From NCBI GenBank assembly GCA_964019425.1, contig OZ025782.1, positions 1 to 64,000 of the forward strand: a DNA stretch of 64,000 nucleotides, read 5' to 3'. Origin of the DNA: Flectonema sp. DT1601. Its lineage: Eukaryota. This document shows, one piece after another, positions 1-12,706 of the stretch. The translations under genes were made by a program, and so were the position numbers. Position 1 is the stretch's first letter. The number at the start of each line of letters is the position of its first letter. The notes under the pieces are model-generated. The model searched no databases, had not been told where the DNA came from, and was given only the letters and a program-made list of their open reading frames with translations.

Positions 1-1156
1 ACTGCAACGACAAACCCAACAATACCACCCGTCAATTTGAGAAGCATACTGGACACTGCAGAATGATCAACCACAGCTGGATTTTGGGTATCTCCTTCCA
101 CTAATTTTAGATATTTCTCGCATTCCTCCTGGGGTGCAATCAGCTCATCAACTGTAATTCTAGTAGATACATCAGCAAGGCTCATAGAAGCCGTCTCAAC
201 CCACGCATGGGTCTGACATGCCAATTCTTCATCCTCCCGAATACAGCACTTGAATTTATGACACTTTGCGCATAGAAAGCTCTCAGTAGCAGTACATGCT
301 GGACAACGTAGTTGATAACAACTTACCCCAAGACAAATGACACTCTTCATCTTATTTTCAACCAGAGCATCGCGGAGTTTTATCATCCCATTGATAGACA
401 TTCGTTGTGCCTCGTCGATGACCAGGAAGTCAGGTGGTTTGTCAAGAATACTTAGGTCATCGTTCAGTTTACATGAGTAGCGCTTGTATCCATTTTCCTG
501 TTCGAGGATAAGGGAGAGACATGTCTTGCCACAACCAGGTGGTGCTTCAACCCACTTCAACATCTTATCACTTTCTGCCATCAGGTTTCTCCTCAAGTTT
601 ACCAGCGGAAGGGCGGTGCTACCGAGGCAGCCAAGTCCATTGGGAAATCCGTGCCATTCATCGAAGTGGACTATGTAATCTGATCCAGTTCTTTCAACTT
701 CCTGTGATTGTTAGTTTCTATATAAGGCTTATTTTTGAATGAATGAAACTTACGAGGATAATAAATTGTTGGGGAAATATGAAAATCCCTTAGTTGCTTA
801 TTTATGGATTTAGATTTAAGGTATGCAGTGGTGCTTGGTTCCATCTCAGAAAAGGAACATACCCGTTCACTTGCATCTGGGATCTTCTTCCGATAGTCCA
901 CCTTCTCCTCCTCCAATCTCCTGATACGCAGTTTCAGATAGGTCTCTTGATTCTCCAGCAACTTGTACTCTTTTGTTTCCGTCTCTTCCTCTCTAGCGAG
1001 TTCTAACATCCGAGCCTGCAGGGTACCAAGTTCCTTCTCCTTCTGCTCTATCTTTTGATTGATTTTTTGAATCTCTTCCCAGAAATCAAACTTCGCCTGC
1101 TTCTTGTTATCCTCACCCTCATCATCACCACCCCTTTGGCTCTTCTTCCGCATCAT
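1..1156 (-). CDS. P-loop (AAA-like) NTPase with N-terminal coiled coil; 2 exons, 3'-partial (runs off window start)
   Basis: The 671..1156 ORF splices via a phase-0 GTATGT...CTAAC...CAG intron (702-862) into an open frame reaching position 1. That frame contains Walker A APPGCGKT (~522-545), Walker B FLVIDEAQ (~405-428) and a Cys-rich CPAC-x7-CAKC segment. Confidence 0.75.
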
Positions 1157-1457
1157 GTTCTGTATCTGTATCTAAAAAGGATAAGGGTTAGCAGGTACAA
1201 CTCCGAAAGAAATTCCTCACTATACACACAAAGCGACAAAATACATCGGCGTCACTTGGCACCCCGTTTGTCAACACTCACCCTGCTACAGAAATGTGAT
1301 TATTGTTCATATGTTGCTATATGGGGGGTTAACTGTTTGATTTTGTACGCAAAATACAAATGTATTGTATCATAAACAACATAACGATAATTTAACATTA
1401 GTTCTGAGATACAGTGACTAGGTGTGATGCTTAACTTAGCCTTTTAAAGTAACTATT

Positions 1458-1525
1458 AGGTTTCGAGAGTAATCCATATACCTCTTACCTCTATTCTCTC
1501 ATCATCAGTATGGTGTAGAAGTAAG
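1458..1525 (-). ncRNA. Hammerhead ribozyme-like motif with non-standard strand order
   Basis: Minus strand reads CCAUA-CUGAUGA-U-GAGAG-[AAUAGAGGUAAG]-AGG-UA-UAUGG-[AUUA]-CUCUC-GAAA-CCU. Complete catalytic core; stems I, II and III all Watson-Crick. Confidence 0.6.
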
Positions 1526-1668
1526 TCAATCATCTGTTGTGACTGAAGCATCTTAGTTAGCAAGACTGGGATGTAGTTACTTTGTTATAATGTTTATAAA
1601 AAAAATATATGGCGGGGTGAAACTTTGACAATGTAAAAACAGTAACAACTTTAGATATTAAAGAAAAC

Positions 1669-1690
1669 AGTTAGTTAGTTAGTTAGTTAG
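1669..1690 (-). repeat. (CTAA)5.5 tandem repeat, probable 3' tail of the retrotransposon
   Basis: Plus strand agttagttagttagttagttag at the end of the structured 3' UTR. Short tandem-repeat tails are common in I-group LINEs. Confidence 0.65.
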
Positions 1691-1909
1691 CAAGTCCATC
1701 AGACCACCGAGTATCGGTTAGGTAGACACTCAAAGAGTACCGGGTGGCTCTTCTGAGGGTCCCCAATACTGCGGCAGTAGGAAGAACCTAATCCCGGGGG
1801 ATTATTTTGTTAGTATCAGCACAGGGCATACTAGATCAGGAGACCTAGAAACACTTTGCTTCCACCTTGTCCGGTATACTAGCAGGAAACCACGCAATTA
1901 AGTAAACAA

Positions 1910-1968
<59 letters not shown>

Positions 1969-2095
1969 AGTTCTAATCTGAAACACTAAATAAACTTGAT
2001 ATTATGATGAAAAAAATAAAACAAAATAAAATAATATAAGATAACATAAAATAAAATAGATGAATTTAATAACTCAGTAAACACAGTTGATGATT

Positions 2096-5000
2096 TCAGG
2101 GATTAATTTTGAATAGTATATCTATGTAACTCCGAGTCGGAGGACCTCGCACCTTGTAGTCGAACCACTTCCGTTCTATCCGCTCATAGTTGGCGTAGTG
2201 GATCTTATTGAGCAGATCAGTAAATTGAGTCTTTTCTATACCATTATAGCAGAAAAGCTCAACTGTCCACAGAAAATTGTGTATTTCCTCGATCACCGTG
2301 TGATTGTAGGCATTATCGATGGCTTGTAAGACTTCGAGCTTATCTCGAGAAGTGAGTTTCGGAAGGTTAGAGAATTTAACAAGATGCCTCAATAACCACT
2401 GTCTCGGCAGGGCCGCACGCAGCGGAAAGCTCTGCAGGTAGCTCTCCAGGTCCTTCAGCATTGCAGCTAGTTTCGGCTGATTCTCTGTGGCAAAGAACGT
2501 ATGGTGGTGTTGTCCGTCATTTGTCGGGTCATCGCATTGCGGGATGTCCGGGAAGAATTGCTGCACTATGATCCTCGCGCCATTACATCTCGAGAGAAGG
2601 TGATGTGCGTCTGTGTCGGTGTGATTACAGAATCGACAGTCAGTAAGACCCAAGGCAGGGAGCTTTACCAGTTCGTGATGACCCGTTCTCACTCGGGCTA
2701 TAATAATCTCGTCACTTCTTAAAAGGTCCTGATGGAACTTCTGTACCCTACCAGACGATGTTGCCAAGTTGTGGACGTGTCGCGTATCTCGGGAGCGAAG
2801 CCATGCTTTTCTGACTTGGTTCACAATTGAACATTGAGCCATTCGGTAGTCAAAGGGAACCTCCGTGAGCGGTATCTCAGATGACGCAGCTTTGGAAGCC
2901 AGGCTATCAGCTAACTCATTTCCAATAACACCACAATGAGAAGGTACAAACTGCATCGTAAACGGGCGATTCAGGGTGGAAATCTGGCTGAGAATCTCGT
3001 GGTTGGTGCGCGAATGCTGGCAGAGGTACCCCTTGGCCAAGCTACTCAGCGATGACTGGCTGTCGGATATGATGTGTATCCTGCCGTTCGGTAGTTGTGG
3101 CGAATTATCGCGGACGATATCCAGAGCCGAGATCAAAGCCCTCTGTTCTGCGTTGTAAATCATCAGAGAGGGGTTATAGCGCTGTAGCTTCGTGTAACAT
3201 TTATTTCGGAAAACCAAGACCGCAGCATTCCCACAGTGGTAACACCCATCTTTGTCCTCAAAGTAAGAAGCATCTGTATAAACACGTGCAATCGCAGGTG
3301 GCAAGGATTCGATTGATGCAAGGGCATAATTTAGGTTGTGCTCTGTGTCTGGTGACTTACGAAAGTCCCTTGAAGGCAGAACCGTGACGTTTGGAGGAGG
3401 TTCCCAAGGAGCCTGATGGTGAGGCAGGTAGAATCTGGACTTGACACTGGGCGTCGGGAAGCATTTCGAGAAGTGGGTTGCTGAGGATTCCCAACGTCCT
3501 TCCTCCCCCTCTCCATTGAAAAGACTCCAGGTCGGAGCATTCTCTGCGTATCGTTGGTAACGTTCGTAGATGAGAGCCATGGATTTAGCCAGGTGTTGTT
3601 TGAATGGTAGGATGTCGGATTCTACTGAAACAGCTTGGACCGAAGCTGATGAAGAGCAACCAGTTAGCTTAAGCATGAGCTTCCTGTGTATGGTTTCTAC
3701 GCGTTTCCATGAGTCTCGGCGGAGATAGGGTGCATATGCTGCAAGTCCGTGGTAAGCTCTCGCTAGTACAAGGCCGTTAACAAGTTGCCTTAGCACTTCA
3801 GTTTTAATTTCGAAAGATGAGATCATCTTCAAGAGACCAATTCCCCGTTTCATAGTGCTAGTCACCTTATTCAGCTGGGGTTCGAATGTCAGTCTATCGT
3901 CAATCAGCACACCCAGGTAGCGAGCATGTTCAACACGGCGAATAGGTATTGCTGTAAAAATGTCAAGCTTCTTCTTGCCAACCCTGCTGCGAAAATCGGT
4001 TCGAGTTGATACGTCTCTCCCATTCACTGTCAAGGGAAAGACGGGACCACTTTCCAAATTTAACTGAGCGCCAGGACCTTCGTCTAATTTGTCCAACAAG
4101 AGCGACGGTTGGGAGAAGGATTCTAGTCTTTTCGTTGATGGTAGGTACAGCCTAGGGAATCTGCAGAGACCCTTGCCGGAGTCAAATCGAGTGCCGATCG
4201 CCAGGAATTCGGTCTTGGCCTGCGACAAACTCATGTTCGAGTCAGAGAGCCAGCTTTCTACCTGTCCAATCGCTTCATTGGCCTTGGTTTCAAGGTCTCC
4301 AATCTTATTGCTGCTCACAAATACTGAGAGGTCATCAGCGTAGAGCAGTTTAATGTCTGCTTTCGTGACAGACTGCGGGAGTGTGTCGACGTACAGCCTG
4401 AAAAGGAGAGGTCCCAGAATACTACCCTGCGGTACCCCCTTATTACAACCAATATCCTTCGAGTATGTTTTTCCATAAAGAAGCCGCGCTGAACGGTTCG
4501 AAAGGAAGTCCACTAACCATCGTACATATGGTTTGGGCAACAGCGGGATAAGTCTTTCTACTAATATACGATGGCTTACGTTGTCGAAAGCTCCGGAGAT
4601 ATCAAAGAAGAGTAATACGCCACATTTTTCGAAGTCTTGTCTGGTTTCCGACGCAGCGTTAGCCAAGATCGCAATATTTTCATCCGTAGTTCTGCCAGGA
4701 ACAAAGCCTGACTGATTGGGGTCTAAGCTCCCCTCCAATAGGTGTTCCAATCGGCGAAGGATAAGAGCTTCAATGAATTTTGCAACAATAGAAGTCATTG
4801 AAATAGGGCGGTACGAAGAAGGTTCTGAGGGGTCTTTTCCATTGCCTTTGAGAAAAGGAATGACGTTTGCCTTTTTGAAACACTCGGGGAGGATACCTCG
4901 TCTTAGAGACCAGTTGGCTATACGAAGGAGTACCAAAATCATTTGCGGTCCCAGATGTAGAAGCATGTTATTCGAGATGGAGTCCGGTCCTGCACTGTTT

Positions 5001-6250
5001 GTTCTCTTGAGGGAACTGAACACAGCCCGGGCTTCTTCCTGCGAGAAAGGACTACACTCCGGAGTTTCATAGTCACCAGGTTTTACCTTTGGAGCTTCTG
5101 GCCTAGTACTGTCAGAGCCGCTTGGGAAGAAACGGCTTATAAGCGACGTCATTGGAGCTCGTGGTGTTGGAAGTGCCGTCTTATCACCCCTGAGTTCCCG
5201 TATTTTTCTGTAGGTCCACGAGAAGCCCTTATCACAACCTTGGGAGGCTACTTGGCTGGGGGATAGAGGAGCTAGGATACGTTCCCTTCCCTTGTGTCGA
5301 GGCTTGCACCACTTGTTGGGTAGCTTGGCGATTGCTACTTTTTCTACCGTATGGACAAAGTTGTTTGAGAGTTTCTTCAAGGATTTTATCTTTAATAGTC
5401 GTGTTGTGTGTGATTCCAATGTATCAGAAAAGGCTGTCCAGTGTGCATCTTGGAACTGATTGAGGAGCCATTTGCGGTGTGGTGGTGAGTTGCTAAAGTT
5501 TGAGAAAGTCGTGATATCGAAGTCCGCTAAGATAGGTGTATGATCCGACATTAGTGCGTCAGGGTCATATTGGCAAACGCTCAGACATTTATGCTGAGGA
5601 GAGTGTAAGACCAGATCGGGGGTTGTACCGTGTTTCGGAATCGTCGGTTTGAGCTGAACTAACTCCAATCCGTTGTCATTTATCCAGTCAAAGACCGTTG
5701 AGCCTGCTGATTTTGTAGGGACTTTCTGTGACCAGGATTCATGATGGGCGTTAAAGTCACCAAAAGCCATGTCACCTAGATCGTATGATGATGGAAGGCG
5801 TGAAACACCGGGTGGAATATATATATTCTTAAAAGTTATGGAACCTATTGTTGAAGCGAGGCTGAATTCCAGCGCCTCAATGTCGGAGGATCCAGATGAT
5901 ACGTCGTTGTTGTGAGAGATCTTTAAACCATTTCTGAAATACGTCAGTAGGCCACCACCCCGGCTCTTGGAGACTGTCTTCCTGTCTCTCCTAATGTACG
6001 AGTACCCATCCATATGTAAAAGATCACTGTTGTTCTTATTCAGCCAGGTCTCCTGCAGGTTTATTATATCAGGGTTTGTTGCGTTAACGATGGACTCTAA
6101 GGCTGCTCTAGTGTTAGTAAGCGACCTTAGATTCCAGGATAAAATTCTCAGAGGACCCGGGTTTTGTTCTATCCCCGATCGGATTAAGAGCTGCCTCGCG
6201 GTGACCGTCAGATGGAAATCCCTGCTGGGATGTGGTTGGGGATGTCGTTG
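2096..6250 (-). CDS. LINE ORF2: 2A-like peptide, AP endonuclease, reverse transcriptase, RNase H, CCHC knuckle
   Basis: The frame is open from the ORF1 stop, upstream of the track ATG at 6013. APE motifs: ILSWN, LQETW, GDFNAHH, SDH. RT motifs: YRPISMTS, DISGAFD, GVPQGSILGP, YADD, YLG. RNase H motifs: VYTDAS, AE, SDSQS, PSHCGVIGNELAD. Knuckle: CRFC-x7-HHLLSRC. Confidence 0.95.
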   Translation of the reverse strand, partial: QRHPQPHPSRDFHLTVTARQLLIRSGIEQNPGPLRILSWNLRSLTNTRAALESIVNATNPDIINLQETWLNKNNSDLLHMDGYSYIRRDRKTVSKSRGGGLLTYFRNGLKISHNNDVSSGSSDIEALEFSLASTIGSITFKNIYIPPGVSRLPSSYDLGDMAFGDFNAHHESWSQKVPTKSAGSTVFDWINDNGLELVQLKPTIPKHGTTPDLVLHSPQHKCLSVCQYDPDALMSDHTPILADFDITTFSNFSNSPPHRKWLLNQFQDAHWTAFSDTLESHTTRLLKIKSLKKLSNNFVHTVEKVAIAKLPNKWCKPRHKGRERILAPLSPSQVASQGCDKGFSWTYRKIRELRGDKTALPTPRAPMTSLISRFFPSGSDSTRPEAPKVKPGDYETPECSPFSQEEARAVFSSLKRTNSAGPDSISNNMLLHLGPQMILVLLRIANWSLRRGILPECFKKANVIPFLKGNGKDPSEPSSYRPISMTSIVAKFIEALILRRLEHLLEGSLDPNQSGFVPGRTTDENIAILANAASETRQDFEKCGVLLFFDISGAFDNVSHRILVERLIPLLPKPYVRWLVDFLSNRSARLLYGKTYSKDIGCNKGVPQGSILGPLLFRLYVDTLPQSVTKADIKLLYADDLSVFVSSNKIGDLETKANEAIGQVESWLSDSNMSLSQAKTEFLAIGTRFDSGKGLCRFPRLYLPSTKRLESFSQPSLLLDKLDEGPGAQLNLESGPVFPLTVNGRDVSTRTDFRSRVGKKKLDIFTAIPIRRVEHARYLGVLIDDRLTFEPQLNKVTSTMKRGIGLLKMISSFEIKTEVLRQLVNGLVLARAYHGLAAYAPYLRRDSWKRVETIHRKLMLKLTGCSSSASVQAVSVESDILPFKQHLAKSMALIYERYQRYAENAPTWSLFNGEGEEGRWESSATHFSKCFPTPSVKSRFYLPHHQAPWEPPPNVTVLPSRDFRKSPDTEHNLNYALASIESLPPAIARVYTDASYFEDKDGCYHCGNAAVLVFRNKCYTKLQRYNPSLMIYNAEQRALISALDIVRDNSPQLPNGRIHIISDSQSSLSSLAKGYLCQHSRTNHEILSQISTLNRPFTMQFVPSHCGVIGNELADSLASKAASSEIPLTEVPFDYRMAQCSIVNQVRKAWLRSRDTRHVHNLATSSGRVQKFHQDLLRSDEIIIARVRTGHHELVKLPALGLTDCRFCNHTDTDAHHLLSRCNGARIIVQQFFPDIPQCDDPTNDGQHHHTFFATENQPKLAAMLKDLESYLQSFPLRAALPRQWLLRHLVKFSNLPKLTSRDKLEVLQAIDNAYNHTVIEEIHNFLWTVELFCYNGIEKTQFTDLLNKIHYANYERIERKWFDYKVRGPPTRSYIDILFKINP
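6152..6193 (-). other. 2A-like (StopGo) peptide QLLIRSGIEQNPG|P
   Basis: In frame directly before the APE start (P-LRILSWN). Matches (D/G)(V/I)ExNPGP as in L1Tc/Ingi 2A-like peptides, with G at the D position. Confidence 0.8.
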
Positions 6251-8249
6251 CTATTGCTTTGACATAGAACTCCGGTGAGGCGTCCTACCCCGTGATCTGC
6301 TGGGGGTATTCGTTCTGTCCCCGTAGGGAGAGAAGGAGTCTTGTAGCTGCTTTGCCACCTCTGATTCCTGTCCCAGGACTGATTTAGACCTGATTCTGTT
6401 CAGCATCGTCTTGTTGGATGCTTTCTTCGGAGGTGCCTTCGTGACTGGTGCTGTTGTGACTTCAGCAGTTGGAGGCTGTGCCGGCTTACCGTGCACCGGA
6501 GGTTTCATGTTCTGAGGTGGCACTTCAGTTGTTTCCGCAAGAGGAGACCCTTCCGGCGATGAGGACTGTTGAAGAACAGTGTGTTCGATCGAGAGTTTCT
6601 GCTCGTGCATTTGGTTAAGCCGAGCTAACAACTCCGATATTCTTCGTGACAGGTTAGCCACTTCGTCGGTGAGTCGGGAGTTCTGTTCCTGCATTTTAAC
6701 TTGCTGTTTCAGAAGATCTTGGATGCGAGCGTCTCTGTCTTCTAATGACGCCTGTGTCCGTGCTGACTGGTCCTTCTGTTGTTGATCTTGACGAGCCATG
6801 AGATCCGAGGCCTGTTCTGTTAAGCCCGTCACTTTGTCGGTTAGGTGGCCGTTCTGGACCTGCATCTGTCGCTGTTGTTTGAGAAGTTCTCCGATTCGAG
6901 TGTCCTTAGCGGAGTCGGATGGGGACGTAGTGTCAGTTGGGGTGCTGTTGTCCGGTGAAGGAGCAGAGTCATCTGGTGAGCTATCATCTATTGTTGAAGT
7001 AGGGAGCGATGGATATTCCGCTTCGTTACGTGGTGGCGGTTCTCGTTTGGACTCTCGGTTTATAGTCAGGAGGCCATGTCCCTTGCAGTGAACGGTGGAG
7101 AAGGTCGGTTCTTCTAGTGATTTCACTACAAAGAAACCTCTGCTACCCTTCTTCCTGTGGTGAGTCGCTGTGTCTACAATCCAACCCTGTCCACCTAGAA
7201 TCTTGATGAGGTCTGTAGTGCTGATCCTATGGAGAGAGGGACCTGTTATGAAGTAGCGGGTACCCGGTGTTGGAGGAGGCATGGCTAGTTGTCCCAGAGT
7301 CTTACGTGTATCTAGTTCCCTTCCCGGGTAAGTAACTAAACCAAGCTTCTTCGTTCCACGAAGAAGGATGACTGCCGCGTCGCAATAATCTGCAGCCTTG
7401 CGGGCAGTATTTAAGTCTGCTGTGTCCAGTCTGATCACGACTGTTTTCGGTAGGTCTTCTTGTATGTGTCTCGAAGCAGAGATAAAGAAGCCCTTGTGTT
7501 CCGCTGGAACGTGCGCTTGCAGGCGGTGAACTGCATCAGTAGGTATACGAAGGTTCACCGATGACACCTTCGGGGTGCGGACTTTAGATGCCCATATCTG
7601 GTGACGGTCTATGGGAGAGAAAGAGTGGTTCTTCGCAAAGTCGTTGTAGATCTTCAAGGCCGCTGCAGATAGATCCGAGGTTGAGAGTGCTTCGGTCTCA
7701 CCGTGTCCAGAGTGGTAGTTCAGTTGAACCACTCCGTTCGATACAGGATCCCCGCCCGAACGGACTAAAAGTTTGGCTATGGAGCCTGAGATTGTCGTTG
7801 CGTAGGCCTTGCGGACTACCGTCTTACCATCTAAGAGCAAAGGTACTTAAACGGCCTGTGTTGCTTCGTCGTTGGAGTTGTGGTATCTGGTCTGTCGGTA
7901 ACAGAAATACAGCCGAAGCCACTGCAGGGTTGTTGATGACTTCACAGCCATCTTTGACCTTAAGGTCCCAATCCTCATCGCGGAGTTGAGCCTTCCCCCA
8001 CGGTTTTGCTGGTTTTAGTTGTCTGGACACTACTGTTGCCCATGACGAGTTCTTCTTCGTATCTTCAGAACCCGTCTGCCTCGGTGTTTTCGACTTTGGT
8101 CTCGGTGATGGAGCCGTTCTCGGTGGAGCTGCCTTCGGTCTCGACACTGATGGCGGCGGAGGTTGCTTGTTCCTGCCATCTTGCGTGTTAGCTACCATGC
8201 TTAGCAGGGCGCTTAACAAGGTCTTCAACTGGACCCTCTTCTTTTTCAT
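6251..8249 (-). CDS. LINE ORF1 (gag-like, coiled coil), split by a +1 frame break at ~7824-7846
   Basis: ORF 7824..8249 has an ATG. ORF 6251..7840 has no nearby ATG and overlaps it in the +1 frame; it is Pro/Ser-rich with a heptad coiled coil. Confidence 0.75.
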
Positions 8250-11200
8250 TGTTTTTTTGGAGATGTTACTGAGGGGAGACGCACCTTACTGCTCTTTCAC
8301 CGTATTGTTTGGATCGAGATCAATAAAGTACAATAAAGTACAGAAACTGTAGCTTTAGAATCGTTGGTGGGGAAAACAAAATTAATATCAAGTACTTGAC
8401 TGAAAAATATTTGTAGTTGTTAATCAAAGAAAATTACCTTTAGAAAAAAGAGAAAATAAAAAGAAAAAATATAAAGAGACAACTATATTTTTTGTCTTAT
8501 TGGCCGGGAAGTCAGGTCTAATCTTGTCATGCCGCAACCATCGCAGCGTTGTCTTTTCTTCACATATTTATCTTTAGCAAGATCACAGCAACCGATGTCC
8601 CTGCAGCTCGCACTTGAAAATTATCTTCAATCTTCTTCAAAGCAGTAACGTAACATCCACGTTTCAGAATAAGGTTTGCTTCCTTCCACAAGTATTCCGT
8701 CTCTGAAAGGGCCTGTTAAAGGAAATAAGAAATTAATCAACGTAACTCGTTACTCATAAGACATGCGAGGACGTTTTGTGGGATGTCGAGACAACAGTAG
8801 TGAATCCCAGGCGGGAATGTGACCCCGCAAGTATCACAGGCTGGTAATTGAAATTGGCGAATGGGTCAACATCGATGAACAGGAAGTCAGCCCTTGAAAT
8901 TCTCAATATAATCAAATGATAATTGGGAAAGAAAAAAAGAGTAAAAGGTCAAAGGGAAACACAAACAACATAATCTTTTGCAAAGAAGGGTCTTTTTGTT
9001 AGTACGTGTGTTGTTCTGGCTAATGTAATTTGACTTAATGGAAGCGGGAGAAAAAAAGAGAACGAAAAGGGTACGGTTTTGGAAATCTGAGGTTCAGTAC
9101 AGGGAGCACAGCTTTATCCATTGCAGGCACGGGACCGGTCGGTATACTTCAGAAGTGGTGAAAATAAAATAAAATTATGGGGTACGTTGGAAAAACTAAA
9201 GAATTTACACTAAACATTGTCGGGCCACAGTAAAGTCATTTTCCTGACCAACTCACGTAGCGGAAGTAGACGCAATCAGTTCCGTTTATTCTCACGCTGC
9301 TTAAACAGCTAGAAATACACAAGGGGTACAGATGGGTAAAAACACATGAGATGTCCTGTTCAGTTTTACAAGAACAAGTAATACGAGAATTGCCAACTCC
9401 ATTATTCACAGGATCAAGCCTGGAGCTGAAAGGGGGCTGTTTCAGGTACCATACGTTGGATGCATGAAGATCGTCATGTGTTACTATTTCACAATGGTCG
9501 ATAGAATATCACACACAAACCTACCAAAAAAAATAGGGAAAGAAACGAGAAGCCACCAAGAAAAGGAACTCCATAATGTTACTAAGAAACTGTAATAATA
9601 AACTCCACGGCGTGTAAGACCAGCGTCTTTGAAATCGCCACTTCGCCGTAACATGACCAATAGAAAGTGTCGACTTCCGACACAACAGATTTGGACTAAA
9701 TCTGAATCACTTACCTGAACTAATAAAGAACTACAATCATTTTCTTTTATTTTTTTTGAATTATGAAACATAGGCAAGAATAATTCGCGTAGTGTCCACA
9801 AACTCGGACCTGGGCAAGGTCATTTATGTTTGCCAGTCTTTATTAGCTCAAAAAAGAAAAGAAAACACGCACAAGAACGAAGAAACACTCAGACAGTTCC
9901 ATTTGGAACATCTTCTGGCGAGACCTCACCTCAGTCTACAAAACAGTCGCTTCACAATAATCACCAACCCAACTGTACTTTACCGTTTTTGAAAATCGAT
10001 TGAATGAATTTCTTCGATTTCTGTGTTGCCAAATGATGAAGACCACCAGAGGCTTGACTGACGGCAAAGGTCGGCGAGTGAACCAGAAGTATCTGATATT
10101 TAATCTTCCAAAAAAAATCTGAAAAAACAATAATACCACACCAGCATATCACAAGTATATTTTTACTGTATTTATGTGAAATTGCTAAAAGCCGTATCCT
10201 AACATTAAAGCAGGTGAGAGAACACGCAAAAATTCTTTGTTATTATGATTAAGGGAAGACAGTAATATTTTCACTGTCATTCGTACCATCTCTAGGACTT
10301 CTGGAGAGTAGTCGACAGGCATGTCCTGAGAGATAAATCATCAAAACGATCTTCCCCATTAGACACCACAGCTTCACCTTATTCTAAACGAACAAGGTTA
10401 ATAAGTTAAAACAAAGTGAGCAGTGTTCCTCCAGTTGATGAGAACCAAATGATAACCAAAACCTTATATATTCTTTATAACACATGTGCTTACAGTTTTC
10501 AATCATGTAGTGCCGGCAGAGAGCCTTTGTACGTAAAAACAACAGCAAAAAAAAAAAAAGAAAGAAAAAAAAAAAAAACACAGTAGTTCAGCACTCACAA
10601 CTATGAAAAATATTGATTGGAAATGTGTGGCACGTCGTAACAAATTAAAAAGAATAAATAAATTGAAAGATACGAACAGACGTTACGACTGCTGTCGTCG
10701 ATTCCATAAACGGTAATAGGAATGCCAGAGAACTGCTCCACAACGAAAGCAGAGAATGTGTTTAGGCAGAATAATTAATGGAAAGTTCAATCGAGGAAAC
10801 AGCTTCAGGAAAGAAAGACTAACTTACGGTACTTTGTCAAACTGCGTTTAATGCGGAGCTGCGAGAATCTGGTACGGAAACAAACAGAATTCAAAGACAA
10901 CGAAGCTCGTGATTACAACCATGACCATCAAAGCTCCAAGTGATGGTAAATCAGATCTCTTTATCATTGCTGGGGAGTTATCAGAAGAAAAATAATTAAT
11001 AAAATAAAAATAAGAGACACCACAGCATTGAGTCCCTGAAAGGTATTAAGTGACATCAGATACCCAATGTGAATATCCGAGAGGAGACAATTATTGAAGT
11101 CTCGATATTGTCTACGAATGAAATCAAGTTAGGCATCCCTTTCGAGTTGGGAATTGACAGAGAAAGTCGCAGTTTTGCAGTACTACAGAACAAGAGCTTT

Positions 11201-11962
11201 TGGGAACCTTTGGGAGATAATAAAACAAATCTCCTGTCAGTGCAGACTGAAACTCAAATGTATCGAACTTAGCGAGAAAAAGGGGGTACCGGTCAAAGGA
11301 AAAAAGGGGGATGTAAAAACAGATGGGATGAATCTGGACTGGCGAATAAAACTGATAAGTTGTGCGGCTCAAACAATCAGCAGCAAGTTCTGTTTCACAC
11401 AGAACTTAAATTGATTGCATTCACAATACCGATGAGAATAAAAGAAAAGGGGGACGTGATATAGAATGAAAATGAGAATGAGAATGAGAATGAAAATCGG
11501 TTGCGAGAAAACCTTGACGTGGCTTACGATAGGAGGTGTGTCAAATATCAGGGCGGTGCTTCCTATTACACCTGCGCTGCCAAACATATTTCTGCATTCG
11601 CTGATAGCAAGAAAAAAGAACAACGAAAAAAAAAAGGGAAGAACGCAATTTTTGAGAAAAAGAAAGGAACAAACACGATATGAAACCTATAGAGAAGGGA
11701 CAGCCCACTATCCTTTTAGCTACCAAAAGAAAAAAGTAAGACCATGAGCCAATAATTGTAGGATGAATAGCAATTCACCACCTTGCGGACAATTCAAGTT
11801 GATCTGCAAAAACAACATGCTCTTCGTTAGTTCTTCATTCTGGTGTTTGATTTTATATATATTTTTTTTGTATTTGGTAATTAACAACCAGAATTAAAAG
11901 TTCTTACGAGTTGCTCTTTGAAAACTTCTCAACTTGAAATACTGAATTCAATAAAATCAAGT

Positions 11963-12706
11963 TTACGAGACTTCACTTGATTCCGCAGGTGCGGGAGCTC
12001 CAGGGGTTTCAGCTCTCTGTTTCTTACGATGAATGTGAAGCTTGTGACACTTGTCACCCTTCTGACATTTTTTAGAGTTTGCGTCTGATCCAAAGTGAGG
12101 ACACCGGCGTAGTGTTTGAAGTGGGACTCTCCACTGAGATTGACAAGTGCGGCATCTGAGGGTAATTGCACCACTGCGAGCACGAATATTATCCCAATTG
12201 TTGTGCTCACATGGTGGAGTCACTGGTTCCGGTTTAGCTGGTTTTGCACCACCAGATCCATTACTCGTATTTGATTCCTCTGGGGACGCTGCATTGCTAT
12301 TTACCTTGCTGGGACATTGATTTCCCATTTGCAATACCTCCTCGACAATCAAATCCAATGACGAAAACACCTGCTGAGTATTCCTAATGGAGGCTGCCCC
12401 CTTCGCTCCTTCGACGTGTCGTAGTATTCTTTGAATTGCTTCTGAATGAGCCAAGCCGCTCAAGTCCATTGGTACCGGCAAGTGACTAGGGTTGCTATAA
12501 ATGTTATTTATGATGTTGGTGTTATTTAGAAGCTGTTGGTGAGGTTCGCACAGGGCGTATGGGTGGTGCTGTCTGATGTTACTCGTAGTCGACACCGACA
12601 TTGATGTTGGAGGGTGAGAAGACATGTCTACTCCTCCGTACCCGGCAGCTGTTGACATAAACGCTGGCTCATCACCGTATTGAAACCAATCTGGAAGACC
12701 TTCCAT
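11963..12706 (-). CDS. Zinc-binding protein: CxHxxWD...CxxC motif followed by a CCCH-type finger
   Basis: CEHNNWDNIR...LRCRTCQSQWR, then CPHF...CQKGDKCHKLH; low-complexity N-terminus. Confidence 0.75.
   Translation of the reverse strand: MEGLPDWFQYGDEPAFMSTAAGYGGVDMSSHPPTSMSVSTTSNIRQHHPYALCEPHQQLLNNTNIINNIYSNPSHLPVPMDLSGLAHSEAIQRILRHVEGAKGAASIRNTQQVFSSLDLIVEEVLQMGNQCPSKVNSNAASPEESNTSNGSGGAKPAKPEPVTPPCEHNNWDNIRARSGAITLRCRTCQSQWRVPLQTLRRCPHFGSDANSKKCQKGDKCHKLHIHRKKQRAETPGAPAPAESSEVS

Follow-up and report, generated by a model that had tools for sequence, protein, structure and literature searches.

Peptides of the 2A (StopGo) type are known ahead of the apurinic-like endonuclease (APE) domain in Ingi/L1Tc and in other clades of long interspersed nuclear elements (LINEs), mostly in elements without open reading frame 1 (ORF1), the combination of ORF1 and 2A being a rare exception (PMC3708506, PMC3894237), and a standing idea is that 2A replaces ORF1 as a brake on the product of ORF2 (ORF2p) (PMC3894237). 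How LINE ORF2 comes to be translated has been tested in few elements, and what 2A does in LINEs is unsettled. Here we describe a LINE on the minus strand of a 64,000-nucleotide (nt) stretch of DNA from Flectonema sp. DT1601 (assembly GCA_964019425.1, contig OZ025782.1, positions 1 to 64,000), hereafter the window, in which ORF1 is present and ends at a UAG codon in the frame of ORF2, 33 codons ahead of a 2A-like junction with APE. Readthrough of some kind is probably the route into ORF2, and we tentatively favour a reading in which UAG readthrough is followed by useful 2A skipping.

The junction between ORF1 and ORF2

An earlier note on this DNA had described ORF1 as ending CAA-UAG-CAA-CGA, with the same frame continuing for 33 codons into APE, and this was confirmed codon by codon. 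The minus-strand letters at the junction are ATG TCA AAG CAA TAG CAA CGA CAT CCC, the codons of interest starting at 6256 (CAA), 6253 (TAG), 6250 (CAA) and 6247 (CGA). After TAG the frame stays open from 6250 to a TGA at 2098-2096 (1384 amino acids, aa), with 32 residues up to the Gly of GIEQNPG/P (the slash marks the skipping point) and then APE, reverse transcriptase (RT) and RNase H. The peptide past TAG reads QRHPQPHPSRDFHLTVTARQLLIRSGIEQNPG and then Pro, with Gly at 6157 and Pro at 6154, followed by LRILSWN.

6245..6256, minus strand: ORF1 stop (TAG 6253-6251) in the leak-type context CAA-TAG-CAA-CGA, with A at -2 and -1 and CAR-NBA
6152..6250, minus strand: 33 in-frame codons, a Pro/His-rich leader and the 2A-like peptide TVTARQLLIRSGIEQNPG/P, recognized by resemblance to family B (below) and by a core that fits the expanded motif
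6263..6265, minus strand: in-frame ATG four codons (12 nt) ahead of the stop (MSKQ, stop), with no Met there in two sibling ORF1s
2096..6154, minus strand: ORF2 proper from the 2A Pro, intact, with APE, RT and RNase H (Pfam) and a C-terminal Cys/His finger (read from the sequence)

It also holds that no in-frame ATG occurs between the stop and 6013, inside APE and after the WN and LQET motifs, although the ATG at 6265, just before the stop, had been missed. The first in-frame ATG after the stop is at 6013 (Met80), with no in-frame GTG or TTG upstream of it, and the ATGs between 6500 and 6000 are those at 6406, 6265, 6013 (in frame) and 6009. Because WN and LQETW, common to family B, precede Met80, a start there would cut the endonuclease. 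The in-frame near-cognate codons of the linker are AGG 6223, CTG 6211, ACG 6208, AGG 6196, ATC 6184, ATA 6172, CTG 6151 and ATT 6145.

The stop context is rare. Considering both strands of the window, 11 of 1291 TAG triplets are followed by CARNBA, and only this junction has AA before it as well (1/1291); at in-frame positions of the two ORFs the corresponding counts are 14/1911 and 1/1911. A run of 33 stop-free codons has a chance probability of 0.21, hence the open linker by itself is unremarkable. The junction has UAG-CAR-NBA with A at -1 and -2, as in a type I readthrough signal, and UAG-CAR-NBA is a readthrough motif in yeast (PMC3159437). The earlier note had appealed both to this motif and to that of tobacco mosaic virus (TMV); CAA-CGA fits the former and does not match the latter, CAR-YYA. 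Structure directly 3' of the stop was no better than chance (z +0.83; z -0.62), and this absence suits a type I signal, for which no 3' structure is needed (PMC13517186). Reassignment of UAG in the host was considered and rejected, since TAG is an ordinary stop and the commonest one, ending 13 of 27 host ORFs (a count that leaves out the three ORFs of the element, one that is open-ended and two that overlap); none of the 13 is followed by CARNBA.

The stop in other copies and in relatives

Other copies of the window element's family (family A) were compared as predicted proteins, and the window copy is possibly among the records. The ORF1 cluster has five members. One is an N-terminal piece of 255 aa; the other four extend to the C-terminus, where each reads SMSKQ, on six contig records (P0035 on one contig, P0038 on three, P0039 and P0041 on one each). 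In two sibling ORF1s of 45-51% identity the protein stops at the corresponding position or a single residue before it, and the Met is lacking there. Judging from these alignments, a stop at this place is a feature of the family and the lineage. A copy-specific nonsense mutation, which the earlier note had named beforehand as fatal to its proposal, was thus not borne out at the protein level.

The ORF2 cluster has 18 members spread over many contigs. Among the 15 listed, five start at Met80 (P0001, P0014, P0015, P0016 and P0024) and the others are truncated, including C-terminal fragments, the longest of the 15 being at most 1305 aa. From Met80, the window ORF2 is identical to P0014 and differs by one residue each from P0015 and P0016; the family is young. 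ORF1 and ORF2 records apparently occur together on three contigs, and a search spanning 761-2422 aa returned no ORF1-ORF2 fusion protein among its 13 matches.

The searches for related DNA added little. No further copy of the element occurs elsewhere in the window; scans of metagenome contigs confirmed 0 of 596 and 0 of 230 pattern matches, and viral contigs 0 of 24. A scan of genome contigs confirmed 1 of 89, an RT of 27% identity that was not used: this eukaryote-type LINE RT (L001:515-1030) lies on a 4-kb contig of a bacterial metagenome-assembled genome and is probably contamination.

In family B (P0002, P0042, P0043 and P0049; 53% identical) the N-terminus of ORF2 reads (M)MPPPPKKQYHETVTAR(V/I)NLLRSGVHPNPGP, with H for R in one record. 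Family C, including P0003, consists of four 1335-aa records on 7 contigs, called solely from a Met after WN, which suggests that it has no AUG before APE, although gene callers can pick late starts. In a tree of nine ORF2 proteins, A, B and C group together (100/100), B and C pair at 83/86, which is not firm, and a Flectonema pair is their sister (100/100); a quick 48-row RT tree agrees, and both trees place the window element with Flectonema P0073 and P0100. If the pairing of B and C holds, AUG-less entry lies on both sides of the split with the Met of family B in between. Further out, a leader with both an AUG and a 2A may be the older state, to judge from the Flectonema relative that starts at an AUG, and because AUG-started relatives carry 2A, the 2A is probably old in the lineage. 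P0073, together with P0220 and P0221, represents an APE-RT-RNase H element that is transcribed in Flectonema neradi; it has GNVEVNPGP and a leader that begins at an AUG, and two of its isoforms differ at the N-terminus. The fragment P0077, 46-50% identical to the three families, belongs to this LINE lineage and comes from the same diplonemid transcriptome as the full-length P0073.

Families B and C could not be paired with an ORF1, because a third homolog search with the ORF1 alignment as query gave the same three proteins again. Full-length ORF2s of B and C are found in twelve contig records, against only two single ORF1 records (P0036 and P0037), and one of these families may lack ORF1 or carry an unrelated one.

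The linker and the 2A-like peptide

The linker shares 15 of 29 residues with family B (shuffle p 5e-5) and is conserved as protein, a sign that it is translated. The identity also extends, weakly, upstream of CTG 6211 (3/9, p 0.005), the first usable near-cognate codon, which of the linker near-cognates only AGG 6223 precedes. A 12-nt tandem duplication (6250-6227, minus strand) starts directly after TAG; when one unit is dropped in thought, the MM of family B aligns with the Gln-stop.

The earlier note had placed a 2A StopGo peptide ahead of APE, and GIEQNPG/P is indeed present there, with G at the canonical D position. The canonical core D(V/I)ExNPGP is therefore lacking, and what is found (QLLIRS-GIEQNPGP) is the expanded core (D/G/C/N)(V/I)ExNPGP behind a Leu-rich stretch. 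The functional core has been widened to this form, with G as common as D (PMC12846837). NPGP occurs upstream of APE in 29 of 153 APE relatives examined, and 10 of these 29 have G in place of D, so that this form is common in the group. NPGP and the Leu-rich stretch are retained between families that are 53% identical. In its full native context, the peptide would rather probably cause substantial skipping, as far as its motif and setting can tell.

The core of family B has H in place of E. This change nearly abolished activity in Crack-15_BF, in a study that stresses upstream context (PMC3708506), yet natural H-for-E variants were more than 95% active in their native context, and longer contexts raise activity (PMC12846837). 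Decay of the family B 2A owing to its AUG is therefore unproven, E to H being weak in the one study (PMC3708506) but fully active in the other (PMC12846837).

Routes into ORF2

In the reading that we tentatively favour, most ribosomes would halt at UAG and yield ORF1p, and a few percent would likely read through; 32 codons further on, the 2A-like peptide would, on some of the readthrough ribosomes, free an ORF2p of its own that begins with Pro. ORF1p would thus be abundant, ORF1p extended by 33 residues would be minor, and free ORF2p would be scarcer still, the leaky stop giving an old 2A a new use in severing ORF2p from the 680-aa ORF1p. What is seen directly is the frame, the context, the lack of a usable AUG, the stop at one place in other copies and the conserved linker; every translational step is inferred, readthrough by analogy with yeast UAG-CAR-NBA and type I viral sites, and skipping from the motif. 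Readthrough accounts for the shared frame, the rare context, the absent AUG and conservation that reaches towards the stop. A single cap-dependent start, as the earlier note proposed for a trans-spliced mRNA, is plausible in a euglenozoan host, and ORF1 is preceded, at 8439, by a U-rich tract that resembles an acceptor; the related L1Tc reportedly has unspliced transcripts from an internal promoter (PMC1874656).

Several observations weigh against this reading. The stop codon and its bases are known for the window copy only, other copies being seen at the protein level; the TMV-type UAG-CAR-YYA is replaced by UAG-CAA-CGA, the weaker CAR-NBA form; and the context was selected after inspection, with several leaky motifs known, so that 1/1291 overstates the case. 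In the portions of the literature covered by our search, no readthrough measurement of the CAR-NBA motif in any euglenozoan was found. In family B a Met stands directly ahead of the 2A-like peptide, hence at least one AUG route in the lineage, and Flectonema P0073 is likewise AUG-started. A screen in human cells is also unfavourable: among look-alike GIEQNPGP 20-mers, 6 of 13 were skipping, 2 showed fall-off and 5 were non-skipping (PMC13405545); among RSGIE, RAGIE and RSGVE 20-mers, 3 of 11 were skipping, 3 showed fall-off and 5 were non-skipping (PMC13405545); and the nearest look-alike, SLAFIGTLLIRAGIEQNPGP, was non-skipping (PMC13405545). This tally covers look-alikes, the window peptide not being among them, and leaves out RAGVE. 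Finally, predicted hairpins upstream of the stop resemble reinitiation elements in their placement. The proposal of the earlier note, readthrough and then 2A, accordingly keeps the shared stop and the rare context on its side, with look-alike peptides that skip only in some tests and reinitiation as a serious rival on the other. The structures concerned are the following.

6286..6337, minus strand: two hairpins predicted 33-84 nt ahead of the stop, at 6334-6313 (cUACGg loop) and 6308-6286, weakly supported (z -2.4 against synonymous shuffles, p 0.017, the region having been picked after looking)
6091..6136, minus strand: strong predicted hairpin, 18 nt past the 2A Pro codon and 117 nt past the stop (-20.3 kcal/mol, z -4.5)

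A rival route, termination at UAG followed by reinitiation in frame at a non-AUG codon (CUG 6211, ACG 6208 or a non-cognate) and aided by hairpins, gains weight from these structures, because upstream elements typify termination-reinitiation and SART1 needs downstream structure (PMC5972666). The 2A would then trim a leader, as in Ingi/L1Tc, and the stop context would be chance or secondary. Such a route has been tested for SART1 and proposed for L1; in caliciviruses, reinitiation still occurs when the AUG is removed and relies on elements that lie 40-90 nt ahead of the stop (PMC5972666). The two upstream hairpins overlie the ORF1 tail motifs SFSPYGDR and TP..SRGR, which are invariant in three families; sibling residues permit 15 of their 16 pairs, as 9 and 14 of 200 shuffles also do, and invariant codons make up 12 of 14 in the stems against 2 of 5 elsewhere, a test that is partly circular. 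Support for these hairpins is modest, the region was post-selected, and a protein motif may account for the residues that do not vary. The downstream hairpin, placed as in SART1, was matched by 0 of 200 dinucleotide shuffles and 1 of 1500 synonymous shuffles and ranked second of 626 windows scanned, although at the same register it is unsupported in family B (11 of 16 pairs permitted, like shuffles). Family B begins with MM or M, and both sibling ORF1s end in Lys; as a matter of speculation, an ORF1 ending AAA-TGA-TG would give exactly ATG-ATG in the other frame. Against reinitiation, ORF2 is in frame with the stop, yet a restart that follows a long ORF mostly takes place in a different frame (PMC10275272). 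The AUG at the stop in the ORF2 frame and the upstream UGGGA motif 1 that mark stop-restart of the SART1 type (termination upstream ribosomal binding site) are both lacking: there is no overlapping AUG, and CGGGGA stands at 6324-6319 instead of UGGGA. Protein conservation moreover extends upstream of CUG 6211, and the rare stop context would be left unexplained. On balance we consider reinitiation rather unlikely.

The same junction evidence that supports readthrough with skipping would also serve if the ribosome read through and the 2A then skipped poorly or caused fall-off, the outcome being mostly an ORF1p-ORF2p fusion of about 2065 aa, comparable to Gag-Pol, or a 2A acting as a second brake on ORF2p. 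In the screen mentioned above, half or more of the look-alike peptides failed to skip (PMC13405545), the same preprint reports a lowered protein level for 59% of ORF2p-linked peptides (PMC13405545), and the E to H change in the family B core had very low activity in Crack-15_BF (PMC3708506). Against this outcome, NPGP and the Leu-rich stretch are retained between the families, and since H-for-E is more than 95% active natively and longer context helps, screens of 20-mers under-call (PMC12846837). We regard this outcome as unlikely.

It is very improbable that ORF2 has its own RNA or entry site, for example through spliced-leader addition at AG 6316 or 6301 behind a pyrimidine tract, or through an internal entry element. 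Euglenozoan mRNAs are trans-spliced (PMC10161547) and 14 of the 15 positions ahead of AG 6316 are pyrimidines, but the tract is C-rich (6/15 T, against 13/15 upstream of ORF1) and predicted to be paired, translation from AUG 6265 would still run into UAG, and AUG 6013 would lose the conserved APE motifs. Hardly credible, and largely refuted, is an origin of the TAG from CAG by nonsense mutation, within an ORF that used to be unbroken (or within an ORF2 from ATG 6265), in a defective master copied in trans. CAG to TAG is a single transition in a Gln-rich context and the window copy bears another lesion, but all full-length ORF1 records end here, siblings of 50% identity end at the aligned place without the Met, the intact ORF2 hardly differs from copy to copy, and a fused protein was not found among the matches.

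To return to readthrough with skipping, a further step, more tentative and somewhat doubtful, is a two-step cassette of programmed UAG readthrough with StopGo 32 codons on in a diplonemid LINE, yielding a free ORF2p that lacks its own start codon, in a lineage whose sister family reaches the same 2A by AUG stop-restart. If true, nature would have switched between reinitiation and readthrough ahead of a single conserved 2A, an element with 2A before APE would also have ORF1, and a standard-code euglenozoan would use programmed readthrough. ORF1 is present in this element, and the 110-nt cassette puts in series two signals that are each separately switchable. The 2A would gain a clear job, freeing ORF2p from a readthrough fusion, recoding would be shown in diplonemids, and the cassette would offer a small tool for co-expressing two separate proteins, one of them low and at a fixed ratio.

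ORF1 and the lesion in this copy

Intact ORF1 encodes 680 aa from ATG 8249. In the window copy it is divided as follows.

7824..8249, minus strand: 5' part of ORF1 from ATG 8249, 141 aa, matching residues 1-134 of P0035/P0038, then out of frame after a deletion, to TAA 7826-7824
7847..7848, minus strand: site of a 44-nt deletion (intact residues 135-149) and frameshift; the span is 1999 nt against 2043 nt intact, and the residues are present in P0035, P0038 and P0039
6254..7846, minus strand: rest of ORF1 (intact residues 150-680), with RRM-like region(s), a long coiled coil and a disordered tail to SMSKQ, 100% identical to residues 151-680 of P0038

Because the deletion shifts the frame and translation halts at 7826-7824, the window copy itself cannot reach the UAG from ATG 8249. 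A programmed frameshift inside ORF1 was rejected, since ORF1 is continuous in other copies. The copy behind P0039, called from residue 84, apparently has another 5' lesion.

No Pfam family scored above the cut-off for ORF1, and atlas scores were at most 0.80. Structure models of ORF1p (mean pLDDT 43 and 59) show a long coiled coil, and their best Foldseek matches are tandem-RRM proteins (E 9e-4 to 3e-3, weak matches of low-confidence models), so that RRM identity is a lead from modelling and not an assignment. Folding is also far better than in synonymous shuffles for two further stretches of ORF1, 7771-7715 and 6637-6581 (minus strand; matched by 1 and 5 of 1500), and the hairpins at 6337-6286 (minus strand) may be a reinitiation or packaging element.

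Element boundaries and genomic surroundings

Pfam matches on the 1384-aa frame are Exo_endo_phos at 37-237 (E 1e-12), RVT_1 at 475-684 (8e-34) and RNase_H at 990-1122 (5e-9); the atlas returned only generic APE-RT-RNase H clusters for ORF2. With APE and RT in ORF2, and with dispersed near-identical and 5'-truncated copies, the element has the marks of an APE-type non-LTR (long terminal repeat) retrotransposon and is, on its sequence, an APE-type LINE.

1669..2095, minus strand: probable 3' untranslated region with an internal 56-nt U run (1966-1911) and a (CTAA)5.5 tail at 1690-1669, the end being placed from the tail

On the sense strand, the element ends 3' in this (CTAA)n tail and not in a poly(A) tail. 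No convincing target-site duplication was detected, the flanks sharing no word over 12 nt, and the 5' end was not found. An Rfam scan of 1000-12000, made with a Pr77 promoter or a ribozyme like that of hepatitis delta virus in mind, gave one sub-threshold small nucleolar RNA match only.

The element lies on the minus strand, as do 27 long host ORFs, and the plus strand has one ORF of 140 aa or more. The host ORFs at 11966-63999 are on this one strand throughout and intron-poor in appearance; Diplonema has co-oriented gene clusters and spliced-leader trans-splicing (PMC10161547). One of the host proteins, mitochondrial-carrier-like, falls in a cluster with a protein of Flectonema neradi (91% over 140 aa); together with the diplonemid transcriptome origin of P0077 and P0073, this points to a host that is probably a diplonemid or near to one. 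Downstream of the element, at 3-1171 (minus strand), are two ORFs, one coiled-coil-like (1171-671) and the other cut off by the end of the window, with DEAQ and P-loop (APPGCGKT) motifs; judged from these motifs, the latter is perhaps a helicase-like gene or another element.

Comparison with known systems

Ingi and L1Tc also carry RNase H, and the window element resembles them in having a 2A before APE together with RT and RNase H. It is not a single ORF without ORF1; for this reason, and because the trees included no named Ingi/L1Tc members, it was not filed as Ingi. As in Ingi/L1Tc and Ingi-1_AC, the 2A-like peptide stands directly ahead of APE in an APE-RT LINE, and the L1Tc/Ingi elements of trypanosomes likewise have a euglenozoan host (PMC3708506, PMC3894237). 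They differ in being described as a single AUG-started ORF, whereas here an in-frame 680-aa ORF1 precedes an AUG-less ORF2 (PMC3708506). CR1-26_BF, CR1-53_BF and CR1-1_LG combine an ORF1 with a 2A in ORF2, but the available part of their description has no leaky in-frame stop before the 2A (PMC3708506). Two Cordylochernes proteins carry a 2A between ORF1p and ORF2p domains and differ in being single annotated proteins, again with no leaky stop in the part of the source at hand (PMC13405545).

The two ORFs of SART1 and LINE-1, translated by termination-reinitiation, also lie on one RNA with structure near the junction, but the window family has neither an overlapping UAAUG nor an AUG after a spacer; family B may use such a route (PMC5972666, PMC10275272). 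Type I readthrough signals share with the junction the UAG, the CAA next to it, A at -1 and -2 and the lack of 3'-adjacent structure, and differ in that the CGA of the junction fits the wider yeast motif only, a 2A follows, and the site is in a LINE (PMC3159437, PMC13517186).

The genetic code of Paramecium differs. Group 3 non-LTR elements of Paramecium tetraurelia have ORF1 and ORF2 in one frame, and readthrough of the ORF1 stop was proposed from consensus sequences (PMC5405496); they belong to a separate ciliate clade, and the accessible portion of their description mentions no 2A or RNase H (PMC5405496).

In the open-access literature searched, we found no description of a 2A placed directly behind a leaky stop. 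Both readthrough and 2A are employed by Providence virus, though not at one site. Each part of the junction has a precedent, and what appears new is the stacking of the two: by analogy, the element would work like Gag-Pol readthrough with a built-in release step.

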